A stretch of DNA of 63,954 nucleotides, filler included, from Licmophora abbreviata (taxonomy: Eukaryota): the NCBI GenBank assembly GCA_900291995.1. It is 12 parts of 12 records of this genome, joined end to end, with 100 filler letters (N's around TTAATTAATTAA, not from the genome) between each part and the next. Parts side by side here need not be neighbours in the genome. Positions count along the whole stretch, not along the records: positions 43,555 to 55,184 come from OLMU01001676.1; 11 more parts are not named here. One strand, written 5' to 3'. Under the pieces are notes generated by a model that was not told the origin of the DNA, did no database searches, and saw nothing but the letters and a program-made list of their open reading frames with translations. This document shows positions 632 to 56,340 of this stretch, in pieces. The translations under genes and the position numbers were made by a program. Positions within the stretch are counted from its first letter, which is position 1. Every line of letters starts with the position of its first letter.

Positions 632-3217
632 CTATTGGCCCTGTGACAGCCATTCCTCAGAAGCTCCTCCACCGACCGACAGTCCCGTCGCTGCTGCGAT
701 ATCGCCAACCATGCCTTTCGTCTTCTGTAGATTCTCCATGCTTTGCTCCATCATCAGCTCCTGTCCCTTCAGCAAGTCGTGGCAGTTTGCAATGTCAGAC
801 TTGCTGAGCCTCATGTCGACGACTCGTCCGGACTTCAATGACTGAATAACATCGTCGGATGCATTTGAGAGCCGCTTGAAAGATTCTTCCCATGTGTCGC
901 ACTTGGCCTTGAGAAGCTTTAGTCGCCGAAAGTAATCGATTTCGGATTGTGTGAGCGTGGGTTGTAGGTCTTGACATGCCTGGAGGAGATTACTGCTGCG
1001 TTGCGCCAGGAGACTGGCATTCGTCTCTGCGGACTCTAGCTTTTCGACAGTTGCCGTCATTCGTCCCTTAAGGGAGTGAACTGTCTCTTGCAAAGCTCGC
1101 AGCTGCGATACTTGGCTCTTGTACATTTCCTGAACATTCTTCATACCGGACAAGGCAACCTCGTTGATTTCCAGGAGCGGCAGTACGACTTCCTTCTCGC
1201 ATCGTTCCTTGATTGCAAGGACTGTCGCGAGAGTTCCAGCATTGATGTCGGAGGGAGTCGTCGCTCCGCCGACAATCTTGCCCATGCCAGATAAACCAGC
1301 GTTGACTCTGTCTACCATGGGCTGCAGCAGTTCGTGCAGAGGCTTTGTCCGTTCGACTGCTTGAAGTGCCGTATGTGTGGCGGAATCTTTCTTACCCTCT
1401 TTTGCGGAGGCTGACAGCGACTCTTTCTCGTGCAGGTATCTAGATTCCGTCAGATTGACAACTGCCATGTTTCCTACGGAGGAGGTCACACCAGGCAACA
1501 GTTAGTAACGCTATTCTACCAAAGCTCTCTTTAAATGCTATCACACGTACCATTCGAAAGCCGCACAACAAGACTGTGGCCAAGGTGCGCATCGCCGCTA
1601 ATGACGGCACCAGTGAGCCGAACGTTCCCACTACCAGCCGAGACATCAAGGCTCGACCACGCAGACGTGCGGACAGTCTCGTTCGCACGTTTGCTTGACG
1701 GAGAAACAAAGCCGGCCCCTTCGTCAGCCCCCTCACCTTGGTGTACTTTACTACTAGCAAAACGCATTGCGTTTGTGGATACGGATACAACGCCTTGGCT
1801 CGATGCATAATGCATCATGTTGTCCATGACGGGATCGCGCACGAGGGTTGCGAGTGGTAGTTGCGCAGACGGTTTCGTAGTTTTCCGCTTCGCCGTCCGG
1901 AGAAACTTCCACTCGTTCCACGACGACACCGAGCTCCGCAAGAGAATCGTCCAAAAGCAGGCCGTCGTCTTGGTTCTCGTATCCGAATCGAGGAAGTATC
2001 GCCGTGACGGGTACCACCGCAAAGTCGACTCCAGTGTGCGCTCGTGCAATCGCCATACCCACCAAGTCTCTTGAGAAGAAAGGTTCAATGACGAGAGCAC
2101 GATTCCATGCTTCATCGGGTTCCATGGGCGCAGGAAGGAGGACGGGCCCTTGGATTTGCACTGGGAAGAGCGCTGCATTCCGGACATCTCCGCCCGCGCG
2201 CATGCGAGCCTGGAGGTAGTAACTCTGACCATCATCTCGCGACAGGAAGACGTCTTCGAGGAACCGGCGCGCAGCGAGCATCTGTCTCCATCGGGGTGCA
2301 TTCGTATCTCCAAAGCTTTCAGTGGCTTCGTCAATGTATTCAACCGCTTCTTTGACGACAGAGCGAGACACAGTTGCCCCATCAAACACAATAGGGCTGG
2401 CGCCGAGCACTTCACCCGACGCCTTCAAGAAAAGAGTCGACGCGGAAGGTAGAAGAGCAAGACCGTTCGACTGCGCGAAACAAAAGTCAACGATACCGCA
2501 CTCGTCGTGGATCTGCTCTAATCCAAACTGAAGGGGAGTCGTGACTAATTTGCCTCCCACCCCATGATGTAAGACCAGCGTGTACTCATTCACGGTGGCA
2601 TTGTGTGTGAGCATCGCCATGGCTCCTGGCGGAGACATGAAGGCATATCCCATGCGGCGATGAGGCGCCGAGCGAACTCGTACAATCCGCAACGAGGACG
2701 AACTTCCCGCCAAGAAGGAGTCCATGGGGTTCACGACCGACACAACCTCTCCCTCCACAATGCCGTCGGTGACTACGAAAGGACACATGTAAGCAAGCTC
2801 CAGGCGGAACACATCGTGTCGCGTGTAGAGGCAAAGGAGAGGCTGCAAGCATTTCTGTGGTCCCGCTTCGTCAGTGTCCTTCGGAGGCCGTTGCATCGAG
2901 TCACCATGGACACACAGCAGCTCGATTGGAGCCTCGACCGCCAAGACGGACTCGACGGACTTGGGCAGACGTGTACGAATCACTGGCGGAAATTCACGCT
3001 CGATTTCGTCATCTGTGGTCCCAGCGAGAGGAAGATTGTGCGATTCCACAAACACCTGTCCATTGCGTTCTGTTACAAGAGAGTAGACGGAGCGCCCGTC
3101 GGGGGACAAGCAGGACAGCGGCCCGACGAAAGATACGGGTCCCTCCAATGGAGGTGTGTGTGCTCGGCGACTCTCGCTGTCTGCCGAAAAGTTCGACGAA
3201 ATTCCAAAGCGGGGCAT
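632..3217 (-). CDS. Nucleoporin Nup88/Nup82-like (beta-propeller plus C-terminal coiled coil); apparent frameshift near 1881-1884; intron 1474..1550
   Basis: Motifs VDFCF, LFLKASGEVLGASP, QGPVLLP and LVRDP..HY.S.QGV resemble the Nup88/Nup82 propeller, and the C-terminal ~280 aa is heptad-rich. A GTACGT..CGTAG intron gives in-frame RLSNG|NMAVV. Confidence 0.6.
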
Positions 3218-43292: not shown

Positions 43293-43713
43293 TTGAAGGA
43301 TAAAGGGTGTGTACACCAACGAAATGAGGAACTGTGGGGGTCGTGAAGTCGACCAAAGATGGGGGGTGATGGTGCCCGGCGCCGCTTTTCCTCGCGAGAC
43401 TTCGCGATGAATGAGACGCCGCACGCTGGGCACCGCGCGTTGAGTGTCAGTCCCNNNNNNNNNNNNNNNNNNNNNNNNNNNNNNNNNNNNNNNNNNNNTT
43501 AATTAATTAANNNNNNNNNNNNNNNNNNNNNNNNNNNNNNNNNNNNNNNNNNNNGATTGAACTGACTCGACTCACTGGAATGTAAGTATCCTGGATCCCG
43601 GGAGGATTTTGATATGTTGACAAAGGCAGCCACAACGATGACAACTGCGGCGGCGACGGCCGAAGGCAGCGTCGCTTAGTTTGATTCTCCCGTATGAAGT
43701 GATTCCACATGCA

Positions 43714-45860
43714 ATGTCCTGTACGATTCTGTGGTCGACGCAGTCCGGAAGGGCCAAAGCATGCGCCAGACGCGCACGACGGATCTTGCAAGAATCCAGC
43801 ATCGACTCATCGTCATCCCTCAATGTCCTAGTCGGCGGGTCTTTGGATGAGTATACATTCGCGAGGATTCTAGAAGAGAGAAGGACAGAACCAGCGAGTG
43901 GACAGCACGTTTGGATCTTTCTCGTCAGCACGACGGGCGATGGAGAACAATGTGATACCATGCGCCAAACCTGGCAAGCACTGTACGTTTTGTGCTAAAT
44001 GGAAGCCATCACTTGGTGCATGAAGCAATCCGCGCTTGCTTGACTTTCTTTTCCTGACACGTTTTACAAACATCCTTATCATCGCACTTTACTTTCAGTC
44101 TGAGCAGATCGCTCCCCTCCGACCTCCTTCAGTACGAATCGTTCGCACTCTTCGCCTTGGGCGATCGCGCCTATGGACCACAGTTTTGCGCGGGAGGACG
44201 CAAGTTGGCAGCGCGACTGGTGCAGCTGGGGGCCACACCATGTGTGCCAGTGGGATATGGAGACGATGGAACTCCGAACGGAGGTGTGTTTGCAGACTTT
44301 GACGACTGGTTACAGAAAGTATTGGTCCCGGCGTTTCCCCAGGGGACTACTCGTGCTGGTAGCAGCAACAACAGCAGCAACGTCAATGTTAAAGCTCCAG
44401 TCAGTATTGGAAGTAGCTCTTTTGATATCCAACGCAACCAAGAGGATAATTCTTCAGTATCATGGACATCGCAAGACGCAGAATGGAGAACAACACACTT
44501 TCGATCTGAATATCAGTATTTCTTTTCGACTGCGGGTCCAATTACGGCCTACAACTTCAAAGACGTTGACCCTCCGTCGTCTCCATGTAAAGGATCCGTC
44601 TTATTCAATCGTCGACTTACAGATCCAGAGTGGGAGCAGAATACTCGGCATATTTCCATACAGGTTTCGGCATTACGGAGAGATGGAGCGACTCTGCCGT
44701 ATCGGGCTGGAGACGTTGCCGCGGTCATGCCGGTGAACAAAGCGGAGGATGTTGAAAAACTTCTCAAGGTCTTACCGGCGTCGATACAGTCCATTGCTGA
44801 TCAAGGCATGAAAATAATACCAACAACTGTGGGAGTCAATTCGCCATCTCGTCGACCATGGCCTCACCGCTGTACACTTCGTGGCTTACTCACGTACTGC
44901 GCGGATATTCAAGCTCTCCCCGAACGAGAAGATTTGTGGGAGCTGAGCTTTTTATGTGATCTCAATCGCAAAATGGGACAGGATCAACGTGAGAAGCTCG
45001 TGACGCTTAGTGATCCGTCTGGCGCTGCCTTGTACGCCGATTATGTATTGCGCGAAAAGAGAACGTGGGCTGACGTCCTGTACGACTTTGATTCGGTGCA
45101 GATGACACTCGAAGCACTGCTAGACCTGCTTCAGCCGATTCGACCTCGTGAGTTTAGCATTGCGAGCTCTCCGACTTTGTCGTCGAGCGGAGAGTCGTTC
45201 AGCGTCGAGCTATGTGTCGCCGTCGTCGAGGGCACAACGCCATTGGGAAGAAGCTATAATGGACTCTGCTCGAGCTACCTTGCCCGACTCGAGTCCACTT
45301 CTTCCGTGCACCTGTGGCTCCGTCCAGGATCGTTCCATAGGCTACCTCTTACTCTGAGTAAAAACGGTGCGTTCGCGACGCCTGTCCTGTGCATCGGCTC
45401 TGGCACTGGTGTCGCACCTCTTCGGTCGTTGATCTTGGAGCGAGAAGCTGTGCGGGAGCAGCATCTAAAAGATACTGGTGCACCGGTTGTTGGTGATGGA
45501 CGCGACAATCTTCTCGTCTTTGGTTGTCGCAAGGAATCCATGGATTACTATTATCAAGAGGAGTGGAGGGACATGATCGAAAACAAGCGCCTCGCCCTAA
45601 TGACGGCGTTTAGTCGCGATCAATGGCATAAGATTTATGTGCAGCAGGTCGTACGGGACGCCAACGAAGGGGCGCTCATTGCCACGCACATTTTGAAAAA
45701 CCAAGGTGCAATTTACGTCGCCGGTGGTGCCAAGATGGCTCGCTGTGTGAAGGATGAGATACTCGAGTGTCTCGCCGCTGAACTCGGCGAAAAACAGGCG
45801 GCGCAGCTCCTCAAAAAGCTAAGTCGACTCGGCAAGTACAGCGTAGAGGCGTGGAGCTAA
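43714..45860 (+). CDS. NDOR1: NADPH-dependent diflavin oxidoreductase 1 (Tah18/NDOR1); intron 43983..44098
   Basis: Flavodoxin motifs STQSGRA, STTGDGE and LGDRAY, FAD-binding PREFSIASS, GSGTGVAP, AFSRDQ..KIYVQ and terminal EAWS. Confidence 0.9.
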
Positions 45861-45928
45861 GAACTTGGAAGGGGTGAAGTAAGGCAAAGTCTATGTGCTG
45901 TATCGTGATAAATCGTAACAGGATACAG

Positions 45929-46678
45929 TCAGAAAAAGTCCAGCAGATCGGCAAACCCTGGTACCAGAATGACTTCAGCACCACACTCCTTCATGGCCAT
46001 GCTAAGTGGCGCATCTTCGTGCGACTTTCCCTTAGTTTTGGCCTCTTCCACAGCTTCGGGTGTGGCCACACCCACAGCACGACAATTTGTCGCTAGCGCA
46101 GATCGAATGTCGTCGGGAGTATCTCCCACCATGATGACAGTGTCGCTAGGTTCAACGCCCAGGAGCTCGCACGCACGTCGCACAGGGAACGAGTCTGGCT
46201 TGGGAGGCCCGTCTTCCATACAAACACTGACTTCAAAGAGATGGACGAGGCCGTGTACTTTCAAGAACTTCTCGCAGTCTTTCCTAGGTCTTCCCGTTAC
46301 AATCGCCATATGCTGACATCTCTTTCGCAGTTCTTCCAGCGTCTCCATTGTCGGAATGACAGTTTCGAGCTTGCAGAGCTCCTGGTAGAATCTTTCGAAG
46401 GTTTCGGTTACTTTATCAAGCGTCGCAGACTGATCCCCATTCGGATCGCTCTTGATGAGATCCAAACTGAGCTTCCAATCGTTGTTGCAGCCACCTCGAG
46501 CTTTCCAATCACCGACGGTGTCGAGTGTAATGGAGGTAGCCCCGTATTCTCGGCAGGTGGCAATAATGGAAGCTCGGTACGACTTGCTGACCTCTGCCAG
46601 CACCCCATCCATATCCAAGAGCAATGTGGAGGCTTTCTTCGGTGTGACCGTCATGGTAGAAGGCACAAGCGAGTCCAT
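45929..46678 (-). CDS. HAD-superfamily subfamily IA hydrolase (TIGR01548-like); alternative start at 46654
   Basis: Motif I DMDGVL..VSKSYR, GGCNNDW, motif II VTGRP, KPD and motif IV GDTPDD. Confidence 0.88.
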   Translation of the reverse strand: MDSLVPSTMTVTPKKASTLLLDMDGVLAEVSKSYRASIIATCREYGATSITLDTVGDWKARGGCNNDWKLSLDLIKSDPNGDQSATLDKVTETFERFYQELCKLETVIPTMETLEELRKRCQHMAIVTGRPRKDCEKFLKVHGLVHLFEVSVCMEDGPPKPDSFPVRRACELLGVEPSDTVIMVGDTPDDIRSALATNCRAVGVATPEAVEEAKTKGKSHEDAPLSMAMKECGAEVILVPGFADLLDFF

Positions 46679-47047
46679 TCGGTTCAAGTATGTATTGCAG
46701 CTTTCGCATCACTTTTTGCGTTGATCGCTTAAGTTCCAAAACACAGACGCATCAATCATTGGTGTGTGACCGACGGCAAGACTGTGCTTGCGCGACGGCC
46801 ATTCAAATGTTCCCTCGGACAAAATATAAAATATCGCTGTTCGGCTTGTGACGTCGTCCTGGCTCGCTCTGGGCCAATCAAATCTCGTTCACTCGTGATT
46901 CCGCCAACGTACTCGACACGTGGAGTCCTACGTGGCCCGGCTTTTTCACCTTTCAACGCGTCTCATCGCAATGTGACCATATTTTTTCCGTCATTGTACT
47001 CGTGGTTCGGCATCATACGACCCTCACTTCTCTTTACTTACTCTACT

Positions 47048-47929
47048 ATGGCTCCTTCACTCCCTCCTCTCTACTTTGATGGCCAGAGTGCCACTGATGG
47101 TTCCAGGTTTGCGTCGCTTCCAGCCGAGCTTGTTCAGAACGTGACAAGCTTCTTCGATTGGGGCGACCTATCGCGCCTCGCCGCCACTCAGCTGTGCTGG
47201 TCGAACGTTGTATCGGATGCAGCCGATGGTCATGACTCGCAATGGGAACTCGCACGTGCACTGATGGAAGGAACCAATGGGATGAAGCGTCATCCGGAAC
47301 GTGCGATTGCTCTCTTGAAACAGCTTGCTGGAGTCACCATGACTCCCGCCACATGTGACGACGACGAGTCTAAAGAACACGAGACGACCGTCATTTCATC
47401 GCCCTTTGCTCCTGCCATGCGTCGACTTGCCGACTGTTTCTTACAGGGCGATGGTGTCAGTAAGGACACTGCGGTTGGAGTTCGTTGGTTGGAGGCTGCA
47501 TTCGACCACGGCGTTGACAAGGAGGCCGCGCATGAACTCGCGCTCCTGTTTGAATATGGAGAGCACGAGGTGGAGATTGACGTCTATGTCGCGGCAGAAT
47601 GGTTTCATAAGGCTGCACAAGCCGGTCATGTAGAAGCTATGGCAGAATATGCCATGTGCTGTGAGCTCGGATGTGGCTGCGAGCAGTCGGATGAGCTAGC
47701 GATGGAGTGGTACGTCAAGGCCGCGAACGCAGGACACACCACGGCCAAATATAGTGTCGGAGAGGCGTTTGAAGAAGCACGTGGTGTTCCCCAGAGTGAT
47801 GAAGAGGCTTGTCTTTGGTACTACAAAGCGGCTGTGGAGGGGGATGAGGATAGCAAGAAGGCGCTGCGTCGTCTGCACGACATTGCTAGAATCGTACTGC
47901 CAGGAGTGGCAGGCATCTTGGATGGATGA
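47048..47929 (+). CDS. F-box-like plus Sel1-repeat protein
   Basis: N-terminal FASLPAELVQNVTSFFDW..L..LAAT...W (F-box-like), then multiple Sel1 repeats (A..WY.KAA..G...A). Confidence 0.85.
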   Translation: MAPSLPPLYFDGQSATDGSRFASLPAELVQNVTSFFDWGDLSRLAATQLCWSNVVSDAADGHDSQWELARALMEGTNGMKRHPERAIALLKQLAGVTMTPATCDDDESKEHETTVISSPFAPAMRRLADCFLQGDGVSKDTAVGVRWLEAAFDHGVDKEAAHELALLFEYGEHEVEIDVYVAAEWFHKAAQAGHVEAMAEYAMCCELGCGCEQSDELAMEWYVKAANAGHTTAKYSVGEAFEEARGVPQSDEEACLWYYKAAVEGDEDSKKALRRLHDIARIVLPGVAGILDG

Positions 47930-48092
47930 TGCGCGGGGAACGCGCAGAAAAGAAAAAAGAGTATGTTCATTAGAGAGACTTTGTAACGTATGTGATAGAG
48001 AGTAAGTTGTTTTGGGAATATCGGAAATGAGCTGTCCACTTAGTAGCCCGACAAGGAAAGTCAGGACCGCGCATGCCAAGAGCCACAAACTG

Positions 48093-49670
48093 CTATGAGA
48101 CGCGGGGTGTGTGTTCAAGAGCTTCGATAACCGCAGAATATTGGTAGTCATGGCTCTTCTTGCTTGTTATGTCAAAGAGCTCGGATCGAACCAATACGTC
48201 ATCGACTATGGACTGGGGCGTTAGACCGTCACATGCCGCATACACGCGCGCGAGAGTTGTCCTGAGATTCTGGTTGCGATACGCTGAAAAGATGAGAGCG
48301 ACAGCTGGCTTCAGTACACCATCTTCTCCTTGAGTAGTTCCGCATAGATGGGCTGCGATGAGCTGCTCGAGAAACTTGAGGACTGGGTCTCCTCCAAAGG
48401 CGCCGCACCCCCACTTACCAGTCGAAACGAGCGTCGTCGACCGATCACTGCCTCGTGGCAACTCTGCAGCAACGCCACTTGATGGAGATGATTCAAGAAC
48501 ACTTCCAAGGAAGCCGAGGTATGCCTTTCGGATATCACGATACACTGGAGCATGGGAAAACTGTTTCGCCGGATCATTTGTGACGCTGGCATCCATGCAA
48601 ATTAACGAATGCGTGCAGCACTCGCTGAGAGGTCCTTGATAGTGAAACGAATAACCATACCCCCCATACAATGAGTATCGCCGAACATTGTGTGCAATGA
48701 CCACCGTGTCGGGGGGCATCTCCCCATAAACGAGCATGCCCACGTTGAGCTCAGGGCAGCACACTTGGATGATCTCTTCTTGTGTGCAAGAGTCCCAGAA
48801 CTCGCCGACGCCGAACACTTTGTTTGCAAAATTGACCATAGCAGAGGCGTCGCGGTTTTCCATTGCGTTGACACTTATATCATGAACGACCCCGTTAGAG
48901 CTAGGAGAAGAGCCTCCTACTAAGGCCAAATTCCAAGCAGGCATGGCACGAAACTGCCTCATTGATGGACCGATGCTTCGTTGAAAGATCACAGGCGCGT
49001 TCACTTCGCTCGACTTGCTTTCGATTTCTCGTTGCATTGTTACGAAGTATTGAATCAGGCATTTCACCTTACCAACGCAGCAATCAGATGTTTGGAAAAA
49101 GAAACGGTGAAACTTTATCCCAGAGTGGACACCATCTGGACTCGGCTTTCGTGATGACACTGGGTCTCCTGCAATATTGCAAAGGAAAGCATTCGCGAGG
49201 ACACCACAGCACCACAGTCTGCTCTTCCTCCACAATGGGGGTTCGATCGGAAACAAGCGATACCCTTTTTTCTCGTAGTCATTCAATACGATGTCTGCGT
49301 AGTCGACGAGACTCGAAACGAACATCGCGAGCTCTGATGGATCTCGCTCACCAAAGAAGTCATCAAATCCTCGATGTAATGCTGTCAGCGAAAGAGTCGC
49401 GTTTTTGTGTCCCCGTTGAAGATTGGGATTCAGTTGGCTTGTTCGTGTTACAAAGTCATCAATCGACTCAACTTGGCTGTAGTAGTCTCGCAGAGTCGTC
49501 GTGTTGGACAGTACGAACATCACTGGAACCTTGGACATGGAAAAGGCGCGCACGCGGTGTCGTGTCCTGGTCTGCAATCGGCAAGAGTGAAAGGTGCCTA
49601 GACTCACTCTCAGTAGCATTGATAGTAAACTGTAAACAAACAAATGTGTGGTCAACATTCGAGCTAGCAT
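48093..49670 (-). CDS. PARG: Poly(ADP-ribose) glycohydrolase family protein
   Basis: VNFAN..FGVG.....TQEEI...CPEL and TGKWGCGAFGGD..LKF. The start codon is uncertain. Confidence 0.88.
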   Translation of the reverse strand: MLARMLTTHLFVYSLLSMLLRVSLGTFHSCRLQTRTRHRVRAFSMSKVPVMFVLSNTTTLRDYYSQVESIDDFVTRTSQLNPNLQRGHKNATLSLTALHRGFDDFFGERDPSELAMFVSSLVDYADIVLNDYEKKGYRLFPIEPPLWRKSRLWCCGVLANAFLCNIAGDPVSSRKPSPDGVHSGIKFHRFFFQTSDCCVGKVKCLIQYFVTMQREIESKSSEVNAPVIFQRSIGPSMRQFRAMPAWNLALVGGSSPSSNGVVHDISVNAMENRDASAMVNFANKVFGVGEFWDSCTQEEIIQVCCPELNVGMLVYGEMPPDTVVIAHNVRRYSLYGGYGYSFHYQGPLSECCTHSLICMDASVTNDPAKQFSHAPVYRDIRKAYLGFLGSVLESSPSSGVAAELPRGSDRSTTLVSTGKWGCGAFGGDPVLKFLEQLIAAHLCGTTQGEDGVLKPAVALIFSAYRNQNLRTTLARVYAACDGLTPQSIVDDVLVRSELFDITSKKSHDYQYSAVIEALEHTPRVS

Positions 49671-50165
49671 CGGATCATACGAAAAGATATGCTTTCGAGC
49701 AATTATTTGAGTTGAGCGCCAAACTTGTTCTGCTAATCGAAATGCATGAGCTCAGGCATCAGTCGTCGCCATCCCGCCACAGATCGTCTCTGTATTCCAA
49801 CCAGCCAGGTTGAATGATGTGCCTTGGACCGTAATATCATCACATCATCCCGCTCTCTTATGCACTTGTATGCTGCGCTTGTTAGTCTGCCGCGGTGACG
49901 CGAGATGCCGGTGCGTCGTGGTGTGGCGTGACGGACGTACTGACTTTTCCGGAGAATCGAGGGCCTGCTCCGGGATGAGGGAGTTCTTATATGTTCTTCC
50001 GGTTTTCTCGTTTGCTATGCAGTAGTATAGGACAAGTCTTACTGTACAGCCACTGCATATAGACTATGCACTCTCTTTTTAGCTAGACTTAGGCATCCAC
50101 ATGGTGGCAAGCAATGTTATAGCAAACAGCAATGTTATGACGACCCCTGATGAATAGCAGAAGTC

Positions 50166-51441
50166 TCACCCCAAAACCTGCGTTGGAATGCGAGACTGAG
50201 TGTCCTCTCGGAAGATTTCAGCCTCTTGTCTAGTAGACTCTGAGTGTTGTGACACCGCCGTTAGGTCGACAACGAAATGGGTAACTTCGCTCACCCGATT
50301 TGCATGGCCTTTCGGACTTGCAGCCATTACTGGTCGGACGTTCATAGTGCACTTGACGAAGCTTGCAGACTGCTTATCATGTTTGCTGATGAGATCGACG
50401 GAAGTGTCGCTTCCGGATCCAGACGCAGCCACGCATGATGGTAAAGAGAACTTTTCACAAATACCACCGTGGAGCAAGTCGGCGAGATGTCTGCCCAGAA
50501 TGCTGCTTGACGCAATCCCGGAAAGCCTGGAAAAGGCAGCATTCGAATGAATAATGGTGTAGGGAGCGTTAGATAGGACCATGACTCTGTATGTAAATAG
50601 GCACAAACACGAGGTTAGACCATGCAGCAAGGATCACAACCATATCTGGTAGCAAACGGTCGACGATTGCTTACCTCGCTTCCTGACAAACCGCCAAGGC
50701 CTCTTCCAGAGACACGGTGATCGAAGCGGGACATGAGACCAGACTAGCGGTCTCTGTCTGTTTTGTGGTCTTTGGTTGATCACGAGGCTTGTGTTTGAGG
50801 GCGTCCTCTACTCTCGCGTTGATCACAAGAACTGAAGAAGCCAGATGCTGGGCATCGTCGTTATCCGTCTCGCTGAGAGAGCCCGTGCTACTTTCGCTAT
50901 CAGATTCGGCAATGCGGGCTACTTGTGTAGGAGCCTTGTAGGCAAAGCGGCTGAGATTGATCACCTCTTGGTACGCTTGTCCAGCATCCACGTCAAACTT
51001 ATGGTACGAAAAGTCGTGACCAGCGTTCAGAAAGGGAGAGGCTTCGACTGCGCCGGAGAAGACAAGCTTCACGCCCGACATGTCTACCTTGGCAAGTGGG
51101 ATCGCCCTTGTGTTCGTTGTGCGAATCTTGGGTACTGGAAGGCCGGCACGGTCGAGATCGGTTCTAGCAAAGGCCGCATCGAACTGCCTTTCGTTGAGCT
51201 TGCGACGCTTGGCGCGTTCGTTGCTAGAGTACTCGCGCCTGCTTCTGGAGCGAAAGTCGATGGTTCCTGGTGGACTCTCATTGCCAGAGCCGTCGCGATC
51301 GGCAGAGTAACCAGATTCACTATCCTGCGGATGGGATTGATGGATCAGGATGTTTCCGGCCGTGGGATGAGCGGAGCGCTCGCAGGAGGTGCCTTGAGCA
51401 GCCCGTCCACTAAGGAGTCGAGCACTGAGTTGAGAAACCAT
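50166..51441 (-). CDS. Protein with a C-terminal PAS domain; intron 50587..50674
   Basis: After splicing: EARVMVLSNAPYTIIHSNAAFSRLSG....ILGR (PAS-like). The N-terminus is disordered with a basic NLS-like AKRRKL. Confidence 0.75.
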
Positions 51442-52090
51442 GTTGCAGCGAAGACGGAATGAAAGTAAGGAGTCAATTGTCCTTTGTTGCGATGAAGGTG
51501 ATGTCTTTCGTGGCTTTCTTGTTTTGTGAGACGCGAATGCTGTCAACAAGTGGCCCACCCGGGCGAGAAAGCGAAGGCAAACCGAGATGATGTGGTAGAA
51601 AAAAGTGCGCAAAAGTGAGGGCTAGATTGCGTATTTATGGGTCAGACATTTGAAGCGGTGACGAATCAGCGACTTGTTAATCCTTCCGAACGTGCTATAC
51701 ATTTGACAAAACGTGCTCTTTAAATGTATTTACATGACATACTTCAGATGTGGCCACGTGTTCAGGGAAAATGTCATGATGGAATGGTCTGCTTGAAGCG
51801 GTACTCACGGCTTATTGCCATGGATTGCGATGCGTCATGACGATGTCAGCCATGACGATGGGGAGGCCGCGTCTTTGATGAGTGAGTGAGTCGAGTCCAA
51901 CATCCATCCCGCGGTCGAGCAATTGTGGTCAGACGCCAATGCCTTTACCCTAGTAGTGCTGGTATGCGAACACCATACAACCGACGTGACAATGGACATG
52001 ATCCCGCTCGCATCTAATGTTTCTGTGCTACGGTCACACCAAGTACTCGTGGCTATTACTTGAAACACAGACATTACAGATACGCTCGCG

Positions 52091-54718
52091 TTACCACTTG
52101 ACTAGAGATCCAATAGCAACGGCGACAAAGAGCACGAATTTTGTCAACTCAAGATGCCGAAAGTTCTTTTCGCTGTTTTCCAATCTCCCGCAGTGCCAGT
52201 CGAACCGTTTGGTAATGTTTTGAAGCTCTCCTCGTTTCATGTGACCCCAGAGTCTGCCGCTTTCTAGGATGATGACAAAGACGTTGGCTAACACATGGGC
52301 CCCTACGCAAAACATGGTCGACCTTTCATATTCCAGAATGCTGCATCGATGACGATACTCTTGCACTCGCGCCATATCGACTACCACATCTGATACGAGA
52401 ACCCAAGCGAGAGTGGATAAGATCGTCGCTGGACTGGCACCCAGCATCACATGCGCGGGGATAAGAAACAGGAGAGTCTCCGTTGCATTCGGCCAGGACC
52501 TGTAGGTGTGGGCGGGAAATCTGCAGAACAGTGCACTATCCCCGATCGCCCAGTTGAAGAAGTGACTCGAGAGAACGAGAGGTGATCCCGGCCAAAAATC
52601 GTGGTGCACCGTGGCTGATGGACAGGCCTTGAGGTGGGCGCCTGCTTTGTGCGTCTGGCGGAGACAGAAATCGACGTCCTCGCCCCCTCCAGTTTTGGCG
52701 TAGTCAGTATCGAATCGGATGCGACGCCTTCGAAAGATAATGTTGGCCGTGACTCCCCAGGCAGGTTGGGAGTAGTCTGGGTTACTTGCTATCTCAAACA
52801 TGAACGTGAGGTAGCTCATCAGAACAGCTGCATGTTTGAGAGGAAGATCAGAGGCTCGAGGGAATCGGACTAGGCCAACAAGACCCTCCTCGTCTGGAGA
52901 GAGCTTCTTTATTTCGTCTTCGTATCGGGCAAGAAGGTCCGGTTCAGGCCGCACGTCGTCGTCCAAGAAGAGGACGAACTCAGCAGCGCTCTCGTCTAAA
53001 CCTCGGTTGCGACTTGCGGATGCGCCAATGTTCATCGTGTTGGACCGAACGCGTATGTTGTTACCACGGTACTGGTTGGCTTCACTCTTTGATGCTACAA
53101 CAAGCTGCTGCTCGAGCGCTTGAGCTGCTTCTTCAATAGTCGGTCCCACGAAGTTCGCGATGAGCTTCTTCGGGTTGTCAACGACGATGATGAAGGTTGT
53201 ACGGCACGTGTCGGGCACGGACAACGAACAGATCCGTTCAAGATAGCGAAGGTCGATTCGGTACGTGGGCACGAGCACGTCCAGGACAATTATCTCCGGC
53301 TGCTCCGATGCGTTTTTGAGCAGGTACGAACCTATCGGCATTGCGTCATCGAGAACCCAGTCTCGCCATCCAGATGCCTGGACGCGCTCGTATCGAACTG
53401 GTCCAGCTGATCCGATGATGTTGCCTCCACTTAAGTTGGAGAGCTCGGCTTCCACTGCAGGGGCAGCGCCATACGCAAGGTAAAGTCGTTGGAGGTATGG
53501 ATCCAGATCTTGGTTGATGAACAACCCTATCCGGTGTTTCGGGACGAGGCCTTGGAAGATCCGGAAATGTTCCTTTCCTACCACAGGGAACGTAGGGAAG
53601 CCAGGGAATGTTCGATCCTTCCACCAAGGGCAGCCAAAGCCGAATGGACACCCTAAGCGGTCTGCAATGGATAGAAATGCACGGTAGAGCTCTTGATAGT
53701 GATTGGGCGTATGGAGTTCAACGTCGTCACCGAGAAGCACAACCCAGTCGGCTCCTTGATTCCATGCCCGTTCGGCCATCAGATGCCATGCCCGACAAAT
53801 AGGGAAGGGAGAGCCGTTGGATCTTTCCTCGTTGATAATCATATCGAAGCGTGTGACACGCGAGCGGCTCTCGATGCATTTCTTCAAGCGGACGATATCT
53901 GGGCTGTGAGCCTCGTCGCTGTCGATTCCGAGGACGATCAAATACTTACAGAGAGGATCTTTTTCAACGCTGTCCAGTAAGCGTAAGACTGCCTGGATTG
54001 AATTTTCGGTGGACATTCCTTCACCAACACGAAGCGTGAGCAAAATACCTTCTAAAGGCAGGGGCGGGTTGGAATTCTGGATTCCTGCTTTCTTCATTGC
54101 ACGTCTCCACTCAGACTGTTGAGCACCAATTCCAGCACAAGATAGAAGTTCTGGCCATTTTGCGACGTCGTAGAGCGGGAGAACTACGATACCGCCAATT
54201 TTCTCATCTTCAAATGACGCAATGCGTCTAGTGTGCTCCGATGCTCGAGTCCGTAGCATCTGTTCGAGTGCGACGCGTTCCTGCCCACCAAGTTCCGCCT
54301 TATGCCCTAAATCATGAACTACCCAGTGCTGAAGCTCAGAACGAACCGTGTCCTCGATATCACGAGTTGTCGCCACGAAATGCACTTTCACCCCTTGCTC
54401 ATGGGCATCACTCTGTAGCTTTGCGAGCTCTTTTCTAGGGAGAAAGGCAAGAAGCGCAATCCACCCATCGCATACGAGACTGTGCTCATTCACTTGCTTG
54501 AGTACTGTTTGTCGTCCACCGTTGTGCCACCATGCTCCAACGATCACCTCTGGCTTCTGAAGGATCCCTTTGTACTGCCTCGCAGTCAGGACTGGAAATT
54601 GAGAATGTACTTTCATTCCAATTATCTCGCCTGCCTTCGCGAGAGTACTTGTGCCGGACCGATAAAGTCCGAGATTAAGAATGCATGTCTCGTTGGGAGT
54701 CAAGGGTCGGGTCGACAT
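52091..54718 (-). CDS. Fusion protein: sulfotransferase-like domain, two GT-A/GT2 glycosyltransferase domains and C-terminal membrane helices; intronless
   Basis: 5'-PSB-like LGLYRSGTSTL and 3'-PB-like TTRDIEDTVRS. GT domain 1 has LGIDSDE and WVVLLGDD; GT domain 2 has VPTYR, GASASRNRGL, FLDDDV and GGEDVDF. Confidence 0.82.
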   Translation of the reverse strand: MSTRPLTPNETCILNLGLYRSGTSTLAKAGEIIGMKVHSQFPVLTARQYKGILQKPEVIVGAWWHNGGRQTVLKQVNEHSLVCDGWIALLAFLPRKELAKLQSDAHEQGVKVHFVATTRDIEDTVRSELQHWVVHDLGHKAELGGQERVALEQMLRTRASEHTRRIASFEDEKIGGIVVLPLYDVAKWPELLSCAGIGAQQSEWRRAMKKAGIQNSNPPLPLEGILLTLRVGEGMSTENSIQAVLRLLDSVEKDPLCKYLIVLGIDSDEAHSPDIVRLKKCIESRSRVTRFDMIINEERSNGSPFPICRAWHLMAERAWNQGADWVVLLGDDVELHTPNHYQELYRAFLSIADRLGCPFGFGCPWWKDRTFPGFPTFPVVGKEHFRIFQGLVPKHRIGLFINQDLDPYLQRLYLAYGAAPAVEAELSNLSGGNIIGSAGPVRYERVQASGWRDWVLDDAMPIGSYLLKNASEQPEIIVLDVLVPTYRIDLRYLERICSLSVPDTCRTTFIIVVDNPKKLIANFVGPTIEEAAQALEQQLVVASKSEANQYRGNNIRVRSNTMNIGASASRNRGLDESAAEFVLFLDDDVRPEPDLLARYEDEIKKLSPDEEGLVGLVRFPRASDLPLKHAAVLMSYLTFMFEIASNPDYSQPAWGVTANIIFRRRRIRFDTDYAKTGGGEDVDFCLRQTHKAGAHLKACPSATVHHDFWPGSPLVLSSHFFNWAIGDSALFCRFPAHTYRSWPNATETLLFLIPAHVMLGASPATILSTLAWVLVSDVVVDMARVQEYRHRCSILEYERSTMFCVGAHVLANVFVIILESGRLWGHMKRGELQNITKRFDWHCGRLENSEKNFRHLELTKFVLFVAVAIGSLVKW

Positions 54719-55674
54719 CTTTCGAAAGTTGCGGTTCCGCTCAGCTTGTGTTATGAGTAAGCCTCGATATGTAGTTTCTCGAACTCCTTTGACGATACCA
54801 CCTAGATCTGTACGTACTCTGAAATTTTCAGAATCATGTGGCTAACACTTTTCCTGCTGTACGACGGTCTACGGTGGCCCTAAAATTTCGGGGCAGTACG
54901 ATTTTGTCGTGGCAATCAGAACTGCGTCTCATCGAGGTGGCAAACTCCTGGACAGCTGGAGGAGGAACTTATCACCCATCCTATCTGCTATCGTGCGGCG
55001 TGGTAACCTTGCGTTGCGAGATACCCAACTATGGTACCGGTTATACCGAATCTCAAACTTGCGCTTATGGCGCTCGCGCGGAGTACCAAGTACTCCGAGC
55101 AAAGTTGGATGTGATGGTCGCGAAGGAGCGGTTGCTGACGTCAGGTGCGACGTTTTTAGCTCTAGGTACTCGTAACCTCACAATNNNNNNNNNNNNNNNN
55201 NNNNNNNNNNNNNNNNNNNNNNNNNNNNTTAATTAATTAANNNNNNNNNNNNNNNNNNNNNNNNNNNNNNNNNNNNNNNNNNNNCGACTCCGCGCGTGGC
55301 CGTCGAGCCGTATTGGTGTCTGATGGGACGACGCGTTAAGATTCTCGATCCACGCCGTTGCAACACAGCCTCGAAGCTTTGCCCTTTCTGGTAACTTCGA
55401 AACGAATACTCATCCTTGCTATTAACCGGTCGACATAAACGGTCGCACTTCGGTCCAGCTATAGACAGCAAAATTGGAAGCCCACAGACGGAAACTCAAC
55501 ATTCCAAGTCACTTCTATCGTTTTAGTCGAATCGTGACCATTCTGACGCTCTTCGGTCTCGTTGTGGCTCCCCGCTGCCATTCCTTTACTTCGATACTTG
55601 TAGGCCGACGCTATTTTCACTATTCAACTCGCTATCTTATTTGGAAACGTTCTCGATCCGACGTGAAACGATCC

Positions 55675-56340
55675 ATGATGTCGTCGTCGACGACACAGGA
55701 CGAAGACGCACGCATGCGGAAGAAGGTCTTGCGCAAAGAGATTCGAGGGCGAATGAGAACACTATCTCGAGATGAAATTGAGACGCAGAGCAACAAGGTA
55801 TGGGAGCGACTTTTTGAATTGCCAATGTATAAAGACGCGAAAAGCGTAGGTTTGTTCCTGTCCATGCCAACGCACGAAATCAACACCGATCTGGCATTGA
55901 AGGATGCTATTCGAAACAAAAAGACAGTGTATGTTCCGGAAGTAGGGCAGAATTTTGAAAAGAGCGATATGGAACTAATTCGAGTCATCCTGGATGACGC
56001 AGACGTCAGTGAAGATCTTGAGATCTTTCACCAACAGTGGCCGAAGAACAAGTGGCAAATCCCCGAGCCTCCGGCTGAAATGCCCCGTGTTCCTGCCAAG
56101 CCAGGTGACATCGATCTGATGATTGTACCCGGGCTTTGCTTTGATCGATTGGGAGGCAGGCTCGGGCAAGGGAAGGGATATTATGATCGCTTCCTGGCTC
56201 GCATCCGTCAAAATTCAAAGCCCAAGCTGGTGGCAGTTGGGCTCGGTCCCCAGCTCGTCGACACGGGCATCCCCATGACTGAACACGACTTTCGTATGGA
56301 GACGGTGCTCCTACCAAACGAAACCATTGTTGTAGACTAG
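55675..56340 (+). CDS. 5-formyltetrahydrofolate cyclo-ligase (frame open upstream to 55465)
   Basis: KKVLRKEIR, FLSMPTHEINT, WQIPEP, DLMIVPGLCFD..GGRLGQGKGYYDRFL and HDFRM. Confidence 0.93.
   Translation: MMSSSTTQDEDARMRKKVLRKEIRGRMRTLSRDEIETQSNKVWERLFELPMYKDAKSVGLFLSMPTHEINTDLALKDAIRNKKTVYVPEVGQNFEKSDMELIRVILDDADVSEDLEIFHQQWPKNKWQIPEPPAEMPRVPAKPGDIDLMIVPGLCFDRLGGRLGQGKGYYDRFLARIRQNSKPKLVAVGLGPQLVDTGIPMTEHDFRMETVLLPNETIVVD

Follow-up and report, generated by a model that had tools for sequence, protein, structure and literature searches.

Can a single polypeptide both build a glycan and sulfate it? The question is raised by one gene in the stretch of DNA analysed here, a window of 63,954 nucleotides from the diatom Licmophora abbreviata that consists of 12 small-scaffold pieces separated by N44-TTAATTAATTAA-N44 linkers. 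The gene (52091..54718, minus strand) encodes a protein of 875 residues in which a first-pass annotation, made from the sequence alone, had recognised a sulfotransferase, two successive glycosyltransferase family 2 (GT2) domains and a membrane region, and which it had proposed to be a one-protein synthase of a sulfated glycan. Our own reading, to which we give a probability of roughly 0.6, is that the gene product is a trifunctional enzyme anchored to a membrane, in which a sulfotransferase-like domain, a glycosyltransferase domain of the GT-A fold and a GT2 domain are joined, with all catalytic domains in the cytosol.

We asked whether the open reading frame (ORF) corresponds to a real gene. 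It starts with ATG, runs without introns through 875 codons to a stop codon, and holds each of the motifs that had been quoted for it: GLYRSGTSTL at residue 17, TRDIEDTVRS (the annotated RD....VRS) at residue 118, LLGDD at residue 328, FLDDDV at residue 584 and GGED at residue 678. The hydrophobic helices expected at the C-terminus were also recovered by a hydropathy scan (residues 748-782, 800-818 and 855-873). The database holds 118 proteins that match at E <= 1e-3, about 100 of which are full-length, with 42-56% identity over 98-99% of the length; these homologues are collinear from end to end with the whole coding sequence (52091..54718, minus strand). Nine diatom species are named among their sources, including Seminavis, Cylindrotheca (two species), Epithemia, Mayamaea, Cyclotella, Cyclostephanos and Thalassiosira exigua, together with a Bacillariaceae metagenome-assembled genome (MAG); taxon labels are sparse, most relatives being metagenomic. 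An exhaustive HMMER search extended the family to 1338 cluster representatives (E <= 1e-3), of which 323 match at E <= 1e-30. The ORF is a genuine conserved gene and not a chance reading frame.

Two relatives are of separate interest. In a metagenomic protein of 662 residues (P0123), a diatom-type N-terminal domain (118 bits) is joined directly to the GT2-membrane part without the middle domain; this could reflect natural variation or an exon missed by the gene model. A protein of 741 residues labelled Agarophyton chilense, a red alga (P0103), is 43-46% identical to the diatom sequences, N-terminal domain included, and its C-terminus degenerates; it may derive from an epiphytic diatom contaminant or be a true red-algal copy.

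The N-terminal domain (residues 1-217; 54068..54718, minus strand) is the part in which a sulfotransferase had been seen. Its AlphaFold2 model, computed from 71 sequences, is a confident P-loop alpha/beta domain (predicted local distance difference test score, pLDDT, 93.1; predicted template modelling score, pTM, 0.89). The top 14 structures returned for this model by Foldseek are all sulfotransferases: 13 Schistosoma entries and Streptomyces Cpz8-PAP (PAP, 3'-phosphoadenosine 5'-phosphate), with a best E of 9.6e-4. Two segments of the domain resemble the cofactor-binding elements of sulfotransferases, as seen in the 71-sequence alignment and in the model. The first is a strand-loop-helix similar to the binding loop for 3'-phosphoadenosine 5'-phosphosulfate (PAPS), N-x-G-L-Y-R-S-G-T-S-T-L (residues 15-26; 54641..54676, minus strand), in which R20-S21-G22 lies between model strand 10-15 and helix 23-32. 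N15 and G17 are invariant in the 71 sequences, G22 is present in 70, and position 20 is Arg in 62, Lys in 8 and Gly in 1. The second is a strand-turn-helix similar to a 3'-phosphate-binding element, R119...S127-E-L-x-H131-W132 (residues 119-132; 54323..54364, minus strand), with R119 ending model strand 110-118 and S127 placed on helix 121-134; R119, S127, L129, H131 and W132 are invariant (71/71), as are D84 and G85. The part of PMC11625862 that treats sulfotransferase families describes Sulfotransfer_4 as the "S. mansoni type", and lists as family criteria a PAPS-loop Lys/Arg with Gly, a Ser on the 3'-phosphate helix and the architecture of the sheet. All three features are found in the N-terminal domain, the first in its R/K-x-G form.

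Profile and language-model comparisons point in the same direction. Sulfotransfer_4 (PF17784) is the sole family of the P-loop clan among the weak Pfam matches, which were obtained for 9 of the 24 aligned members (best E 5.5e-4), and weak matches to it were also found in 8 of 12 further diatom-type sequences. Among the 30 nearest named clusters in the ESM Atlas, 18 are Sulfotransfer_4 (top score 0.91, 173 shared features). In a red-alga-type relative with the same core (P0259), Sulfotransfer_4 passes its cut-off at 50.6 bits. When the profile of the diatom N-terminal domain was aligned with that domain using hhalign, a probability of 82% and a score of 40.2 were obtained over 160 columns with both motifs aligned; twenty shuffles of the P0259 domain gave at most 0.6% and one reversal 0.8%. 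Between the same two domains, BLASTP gave E 0.074, confined to the P-loop, and a HMMER profile gave E 0.0099 in a set of 261 proteins. Searches for stand-alone relatives of the N-terminal domain returned just 4 fragments of its own family, and a search with the P0259 Sulfotransfer_4 domain as query returned no matches.

Several observations weigh against the assignment. The diatom ORF matches Sulfotransfer_4 at 14.6 bits (E 0.031) over residues 13-50 only, while the gathering cut-off is 22.8; its best diatom relative reaches 20.3 bits and every scanned diatom sequence lies below the cut-off. In structural matching, P-loop kinases score almost as well as the Schistosoma-type sulfotransferases. 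The hhalign control with an archaeal adenylylsulfate (APS) kinase, a true P-loop kinase, gave a probability of 66% and a score of 37.8 over 44 columns of the P-loop; an archaeal Sulfotransfer_4 neighbour, described below, gave no significant match to the N-terminal profile (5.5%), and Sulfotransfer_3 domains gave 3% or less. A profile search of the PDB with the N-terminal domain and part of the middle domain yielded one chance-level hit, an unrelated chain with E 1.4, and neither a sulfotransferase nor a kinase. Finally, the candidates for a catalytic base are the invariant D84 and H131 together with E128 (70/71) and H162 (69/71), none of which is assignable. Since the Pfam threshold is missed, the sulfotransferase reading rests on the motifs, the weak profile hits, the language-model neighbours and the analogy of architecture.

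The kinase-like scores bring forward another explanation, namely that the N-terminal domain is a P-loop module other than a sulfotransferase, whether a sugar or acceptor kinase or a regulatory or inactive module, and that the protein is a two-glycosyltransferase enzyme that carries out no sulfation. We consider this unlikely. The Walker-A lysine is missing at its position, residue 23, in all 71 sequences (Thr in 49, Ser in 18, Ile in 3, Leu in 1), while 70 of the 71 possess the R/K-x-G loop of sulfotransferase type, and the invariant R119-x7-S127 pair sits on the strand-turn-helix described above. Both the weak Pfam matches and the ESM neighbours include sulfotransferase families only, and the hhalign alignment extends over 160 columns for the sulfotransferase versus 44 for the kinase. 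Moreover, clear sulfotransferase domains fill the equivalent accessory position in other lineages. The N-terminal domain is thus most probably a divergent sulfotransferase. The original call is supported by the motifs, the weak hits and the ESM neighbours, but not by the Pfam cut-off; in the structural comparison sulfotransferases head the Foldseek list, with P-loop kinases close behind in score.

The middle domain (residues 218-478; 53285..54067, minus strand) had been annotated as the first of two GT2 domains. No Pfam or NCBIfam family matches residues 218-478 at E <= 1, which counts against a functional glycosyltransferase here, and no PDB profile match was found in this stretch. Its model, however, adopts the GT-A fold with a confidence of 94.3. 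The DxD-type motif G330-D331-D332 (53723..53731, minus strand) follows model strand 111-116, which is strand 4, and hence occupies the canonical GT-A position. In an alignment of 24 sequences that includes fungal and distant forms, D266, G330-D331-D332, D368, H384, N402 and R442-Y443 are invariant; in a set of 101 diverse sequences the DxD-type motif is conserved at >= 90%, and D268, N402-Q403 and D406 are also invariant or nearly so (24 to 101 sequences). From the model, we can say confidently that the middle domain has a GT-A glycosyltransferase fold but is not a recognisable GT2; the annotated DD motif stands and the family name does not.

It could still be argued that the middle domain is catalytically dead and serves for scaffolding, carbohydrate binding or dimerisation, so that the enzyme would form a single linkage and then sulfate its product. 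Inactive GT-A partners do occur in other bifunctional systems, no Pfam or NCBIfam family recognises the domain, and no homologue of it adjoins the prokaryotic GT2-membrane genes described below. We nevertheless find this reading quite improbable, given that D266/D268, D331-D332 immediately after strand 4, and D368, and likewise H384, N402-Q403 and D406, are conserved in fungi and distant eukaryotes as well as in diatoms, in a domain modelled with high confidence. As a separate observation, the nearest ESM Atlas clusters for 53285-54076 are unannotated proteins of ~230-257 residues from Nucleocytoviricota (5410 members, score 0.97) and haptophytes (score 0.96); giant viruses may carry stand-alone copies of this type of GT-A domain, which is a lead.

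The second glycosyltransferase domain (residues 479-745; 52484..53284, minus strand) is a GT2 as annotated: it passes PF00535 (33.6 bits, cut-off 23.3) with a match that spans residues 546-605, and all 24 aligned members match the same family. Its DxD motif, D586-D587-D588 (52955..52963, minus strand), is invariant in 24/24 sequences and in 25/25 when prokaryotic homologues are included. The candidate catalytic acid/base loop, G-G-G-E680-D681 (52676..52690, minus strand), has an invariant G679, with G677, G678, E680 and D681 conserved at >= 90%; G and E of this loop are invariant across the prokaryotic homologues. PF13632 covers residues 581-774 at 19.7 bits, under its cut-off of 27, while prokaryotic homologues score 49.9 and 34.3. 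Processive membrane GT2 synthases of the cellulose, chitin, hyaluronan and NodC type carry a Q(Q/R)xRW acceptor motif; the corresponding place here reads H-F-F-N-W-A-I-G-D (consensus HFFNWAxGD, with W723, G726 and D727 conserved at >= 90%) and has no Q..R. The best NCBIfam matches are MftF (TIGR03965, E 4.2e-16) and EpsD (E 8.1e-13), both far under their equivalog cut-offs. In the PDB, the full-length profile matched only the N-terminal halves of generic GT2 proteins and the GT2-membrane profile only the first ~110 residues of generic GT2 structures, leaving the membrane half without a solved match.

The C-terminal membrane region (residues 746-875; 52094..52483, minus strand) comprises 3-4 hydrophobic helices and a conserved GRLxGH...RFDWH loop, as defined by hydropathy and by the alignment with prokaryotic homologues. 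A Kyte-Doolittle scan with a window of 19 residues placed no hydrophobic segment before residue 748; there is no signal peptide, every catalytic domain is N-terminal to the first hydrophobic segment, and in most homologues the sulfotransferase-like fold begins ~10 residues or less from the first Met. With no hydrophobic segment ahead of residue 748 and a fold that starts so near the initiator, the three catalytic domains should lie on the cytosolic side of the membrane, unlike in classical Golgi carbohydrate sulfation. Application of the positive-inside rule gave no consistent topology for the 3-4 C-terminal helices.

Based on these features, we propose the following scheme. The GT2 domain and the C-terminal helices would anchor the enzyme at the membrane; archaea and bacteria have stand-alone proteins to which this module is homologous along its full length. 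A membrane-associated acceptor, or a chain being elongated, would receive one sugar from the GT2 domain; a second, different sugar or linkage would come from the middle GT-A domain, and the N-terminal domain, as a divergent S. mansoni-type (Sulfotransfer_4) enzyme, would sulfate the product using PAPS. The analysis itself shows the folds of the domains, their conserved residues of catalytic type, the modular build of the family and the corresponding gene neighbourhoods in prokaryotes. That all three domains are active, that PAPS is the donor, that the catalytic domains are cytosolic and that the steps follow this order is what we infer from sequences and models. Two kinds of product are conceivable: a polymer that is synthesised in the cytosol and then exported, or a head group carried by a glycolipid or lipid-linked oligosaccharide.

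How does this architecture relate to the rest of the family? The core, i.e. the middle GT-A domain, the GT2 domain and the membrane part, is spread through fungi, algae and other eukaryotes, far more widely than the diatom architecture. A Pfam scan of 52 of the 150 listed representatives, picked as long enough to hold extra domains, found sulfotransferase domains at E <= 1e-5 in 12 (five N-terminal Sulfotransfer_3/_1, six C-terminal Sulfotransfer_3/_1 and one N-terminal Sulfotransfer_4, the latter in a representative labelled Hildenbrandia rubra, a red alga), with one more, weak, case. An NAD-epimerase, N-terminal or internal, is present in 20/52, GT8 at either end in 10/52, Methyltransf_24 in 3/52 (two of them with a histidine phosphatase in addition) and a fragment of an aldehyde dehydrogenase in 1/52. 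The fungal fusion with an epimerase that the first-pass annotation had mentioned is real: in Cantharellus (P0116) and Mucidula (P0138), an NAD-epimerase lies ahead of the same two glycosyltransferase modules. The P0116 epimerase is most like GDP-mannose 3,5-epimerase (E 2.5e-71; 8sg0 and 2c59, E about 1e-71), a resemblance in sequence which hints that at least the epimerase-bearing relatives use GDP-sugars.

A core tree was computed with FastTree from 106 rows, made up of 16 diatom sequences of ~90 and all other stored core-covering proteins; the coverage filter removed 77 of the 261 stored proteins, and two near-duplicates were dropped. Sulfotransferase-bearing forms fall into three separate clades: the diatoms (support 97), a red-alga-type pair within a clade of GT8 and core forms, and a Sulfotransfer_3 clade (support 100) that splits into N-terminal (97) and C-terminal (99) subclades. 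Against a firm count of gains from this tree, FastTree gave long-branch warnings and some rows scored as core-only may be truncated gene models, which makes the numbers of gains rough. Nevertheless, differing sulfotransferase families are found at differing ends of one core, which a single fusion event cannot explain. Domains have been shuffled around a shared core, as had been suggested; elsewhere in the family the same core is joined to an epimerase, GT8, Sulfotransfer_1/3/4 or a methyltransferase.

Prokaryotic relatives were sought in a scan of one genome per species. The homologues cover only the GT2 and membrane half (query residues ~473-866, 27-36% identity), align across the membrane helices and the RFDW/ERFDY motif, and are found in Nitrosopumilaceae, Poseidoniales, Methanosarcinaceae, Bathyarchaeia, Chitinophagaceae and others. 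The survey took in 26 loci: at 25 of these the closest two ORFs on either side were considered, which makes 85 of the 191 listed ORFs, and 13 further ORFs were added. The GT2-membrane gene has as neighbour an NAD-epimerase at 10/26 loci, a radical S-adenosylmethionine (radical-SAM) gene, usually abutting upstream, at 10/26, a second GT2 at 8/26, an MsbA-like ATP-binding cassette (ABC) exporter at 4/26, a methyltransferase at 2/26, sulfotransferase genes at 2/26 and a GT8 pair at 1/26. The prokaryotic neighbour genes mirror the eukaryotic fusion partners. One of the two sulfotransferase loci (L038) has two Sulfotransfer_3 genes beside the GT2-membrane gene. The other, in a marine Euryarchaeota MAG (L005:234-4812), reads APS kinase, NAD-epimerase, GT2-membrane, Sulfotransfer_3, Sulfotransfer_4, and is a compact candidate locus for an archaeal sulfated glycoconjugate. 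The radical-SAM gene encodes ~315-330 residues and was seen in L003, L008, L011, L016, L018, L019, L020 and L039 (about 2000-3000), at L031:4550-5512 and at L009:1035-3023; the Methanolobus gene forms a fusion with the epimerase, and the eukaryotic fusions showed no radical-SAM domain.

The middle domain behaves differently. Its profile, run against six-frame translations of 80 loci, was found only in two (L001 and L002) and in none beside a prokaryotic GT2-membrane gene; within the sample examined it is eukaryote-specific. The first of the two (L001:2917-5736), on a 224-kb contig of a "Myxococcota" MAG, is a full-length orthologue with 53% identity and the only full-length "bacterial" match. 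This copy is split by a canonical 87-nt GT-AG intron (L001 4045-4131) and its flanks hold low-complexity and eukaryote-like ORFs; given the intron and the flanks, the contig is eukaryotic, with the look of diatom-type DNA, and was mis-binned into a bacterial MAG. The second (L002:1657-3444), on a 3.4-kb contig of a Verrucomicrobia MAG, is an uninterrupted ORF with the middle GT-A and GT2 core (40% identity; 290 bits with the hidden Markov model of the middle domain). It is either a mis-binned eukaryotic fragment or a rare bacterial full core, 3.4 kb being too short to tell.

The first-pass annotation had entertained horizontal transfer. That diatoms acquired the gene recently from bacteria by this route is very improbable: the intron-free frame, the archaeal and bacterial homologues of the GT2-membrane half (E to about 1e-50, values that are relative to the candidate stretches only) and the "Myxococcota" contig could be cited for it, but the prokaryotic matches are half-length and ~30% identical, the sole full-length "bacterial" copy bears an intron, fungi, algae and other eukaryotes commonly possess the complete core, and the scaffold neighbours of the gene are eukaryotic.

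Each domain of the diatom protein is of a known fold class, and both two-GT-A polymerases and sulfotransferase fusions such as NDST are precedents. The enzymes structurally closest to the N-terminal domain, the Schistosoma mansoni-type sulfotransferases (PF17784; 4mua, 5tiv) and Streptomyces Cpz8 (9kf2), share 13-16% identity with it, and HMMER gave no link to solved sulfotransferases. They are soluble, stand-alone enzymes of small-molecule substrates, whereas the diatom domain shares its polypeptide with two glycosyltransferases and a membrane anchor. The likeness to two-GT-A polymerases (E. coli K4 chondroitin polymerase, 2z86; Pasteurella heparosan synthase, 8viw; human CHSY3-CHPF, 9q8z; LARGE1, 7ui6) is generic to the fold and does not establish the diatom enzyme as a polymerase; these proteins lack both a sulfotransferase domain and the C-terminal membrane module, and the products of the animal ones are sulfated by separate Golgi enzymes. 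Animal NDST (9f6z/1nst) is a Golgi-lumenal type II protein of the Sulfotransfer_1 family that modifies an existing chain and has no glycosyltransferase domain. MftF resembles the diatom protein in having a GT2 domain followed by C-terminal membrane helices, with a match over residues 544-784, and is also the best NCBIfam match of an archaeal homologue (L004, E 2.9e-16). Identity as MftF was rejected: the diatom protein scores 58.9 bits for an equivalog cut-off of 280, and mycofactocin genes are absent.

The scheme proposed here can be compared with the synthesis of Nod factor in rhizobia, where the membrane GT2 NodC makes an oligosaccharide at the cytosolic face, which NodH then sulfates in the cytosol using PAPS. 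NodC and NodH are, however, separate proteins, and NodC is a processive chito-oligosaccharide synthase with QxxRW, while the diatom protein has HFFNWAxGD and an extra GT-A domain. NodH belongs to Sulfotransfer_3 and has an RXG loop, according to the family survey within PMC11625862, and this same family is fused to the core in other eukaryotes. Of a diatom sulfotransferase-glycosyltransferase fusion, or of a fusion of GDP-mannose epimerase with GT2, no description was found in a full-text literature search that was thin on subscription journals; within that literature, the architecture has not already been characterised with another function.

The trifunctional reading can be extended, at odds that we regard as rather low, to a single-polypeptide synthase of a diatom-wide sulfated wall polymer or exopolymer, synthesised and sulfated in the cytosol and then exported, and not made in the Golgi lumen. 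Its best fit would be sulfated glucuronomannan, because the protein would unite a sulfotransferase with two different glycosyltransferases, three activities in all. The text on diatom walls in PMC4584364 regards sulfated glucuronomannan as ubiquitous there, and the diatom structures known are, in the relevant section of PMC11468063, essentially glucuronomannans only. In this same extension the GT-A and GT2-membrane modules would form a pan-eukaryotic "plug-in" chassis drawn from archaeal and bacterial operons, and the fused accessory domain (GDP-mannose 3,5-epimerase, GT8, Sulfotransfer_1/3/4 or O-methyltransferase) would set the glycan chemistry of each lineage.

The genomic setting agrees with a eukaryotic gene. 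Because the window is a concatenation, with 11 junctions across 3379-62949 (e.g. 55185-55284), synteny is readable only inside one piece. The gene sits on an 11.6-kb piece (43555-55184) that also encodes an NDOR1-like FAD_binding_1/NAD_binding_1 reductase, a haloacid dehalogenase (HAD) hydrolase, a Sel1-repeat protein and a poly(ADP-ribose) glycohydrolase; these eukaryotic-type neighbours make the setting of the gene eukaryotic and nuclear, in agreement with the location first assigned to it. The gap-free segment said to be shared with NDOR1 and a PAS protein was confirmed, but the identity of the latter as a PAS protein was not, as the two split ORFs concerned (50166-51612) match no Pfam family at E <= 0.001. 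No RNA data set was listed as containing the ORF; the one run with a small share (X1, 0.08) yielded four contigs of 139-321 bases, which gave no information on transcripts and three of which have loose ends that resemble sequencing adaptor. On the piece beyond the linker, 55474-56340 (plus strand) encodes a 5-formyltetrahydrofolate cyclo-ligase (Pfam E 7.5e-39), which is unrelated to the fusion gene.

Little is known of the genes by which algae assemble and sulfate their polysaccharides, and for brown algae this is stated of sulfated glycan synthesis in part of the text of PMC11468063. Diatom sulfated polymers are relevant to carbon export and to biofilms, and one intron-free, diatom-wide gene that apparently couples two glycosyl transfers with sulfation offers a directly testable handle on how they are made. 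If the catalytic domains face the cytosol, this would be an unusual route of carbohydrate sulfation for a eukaryote. More broadly, the tailoring enzyme joined to the shared core differs among fungi, red algae, diatoms and uncultured eukaryotes, in combinations that prokaryotic operons mirror; the family pattern is thus a practical guide to the function of hundreds of unannotated eukaryotic "GT2" proteins.

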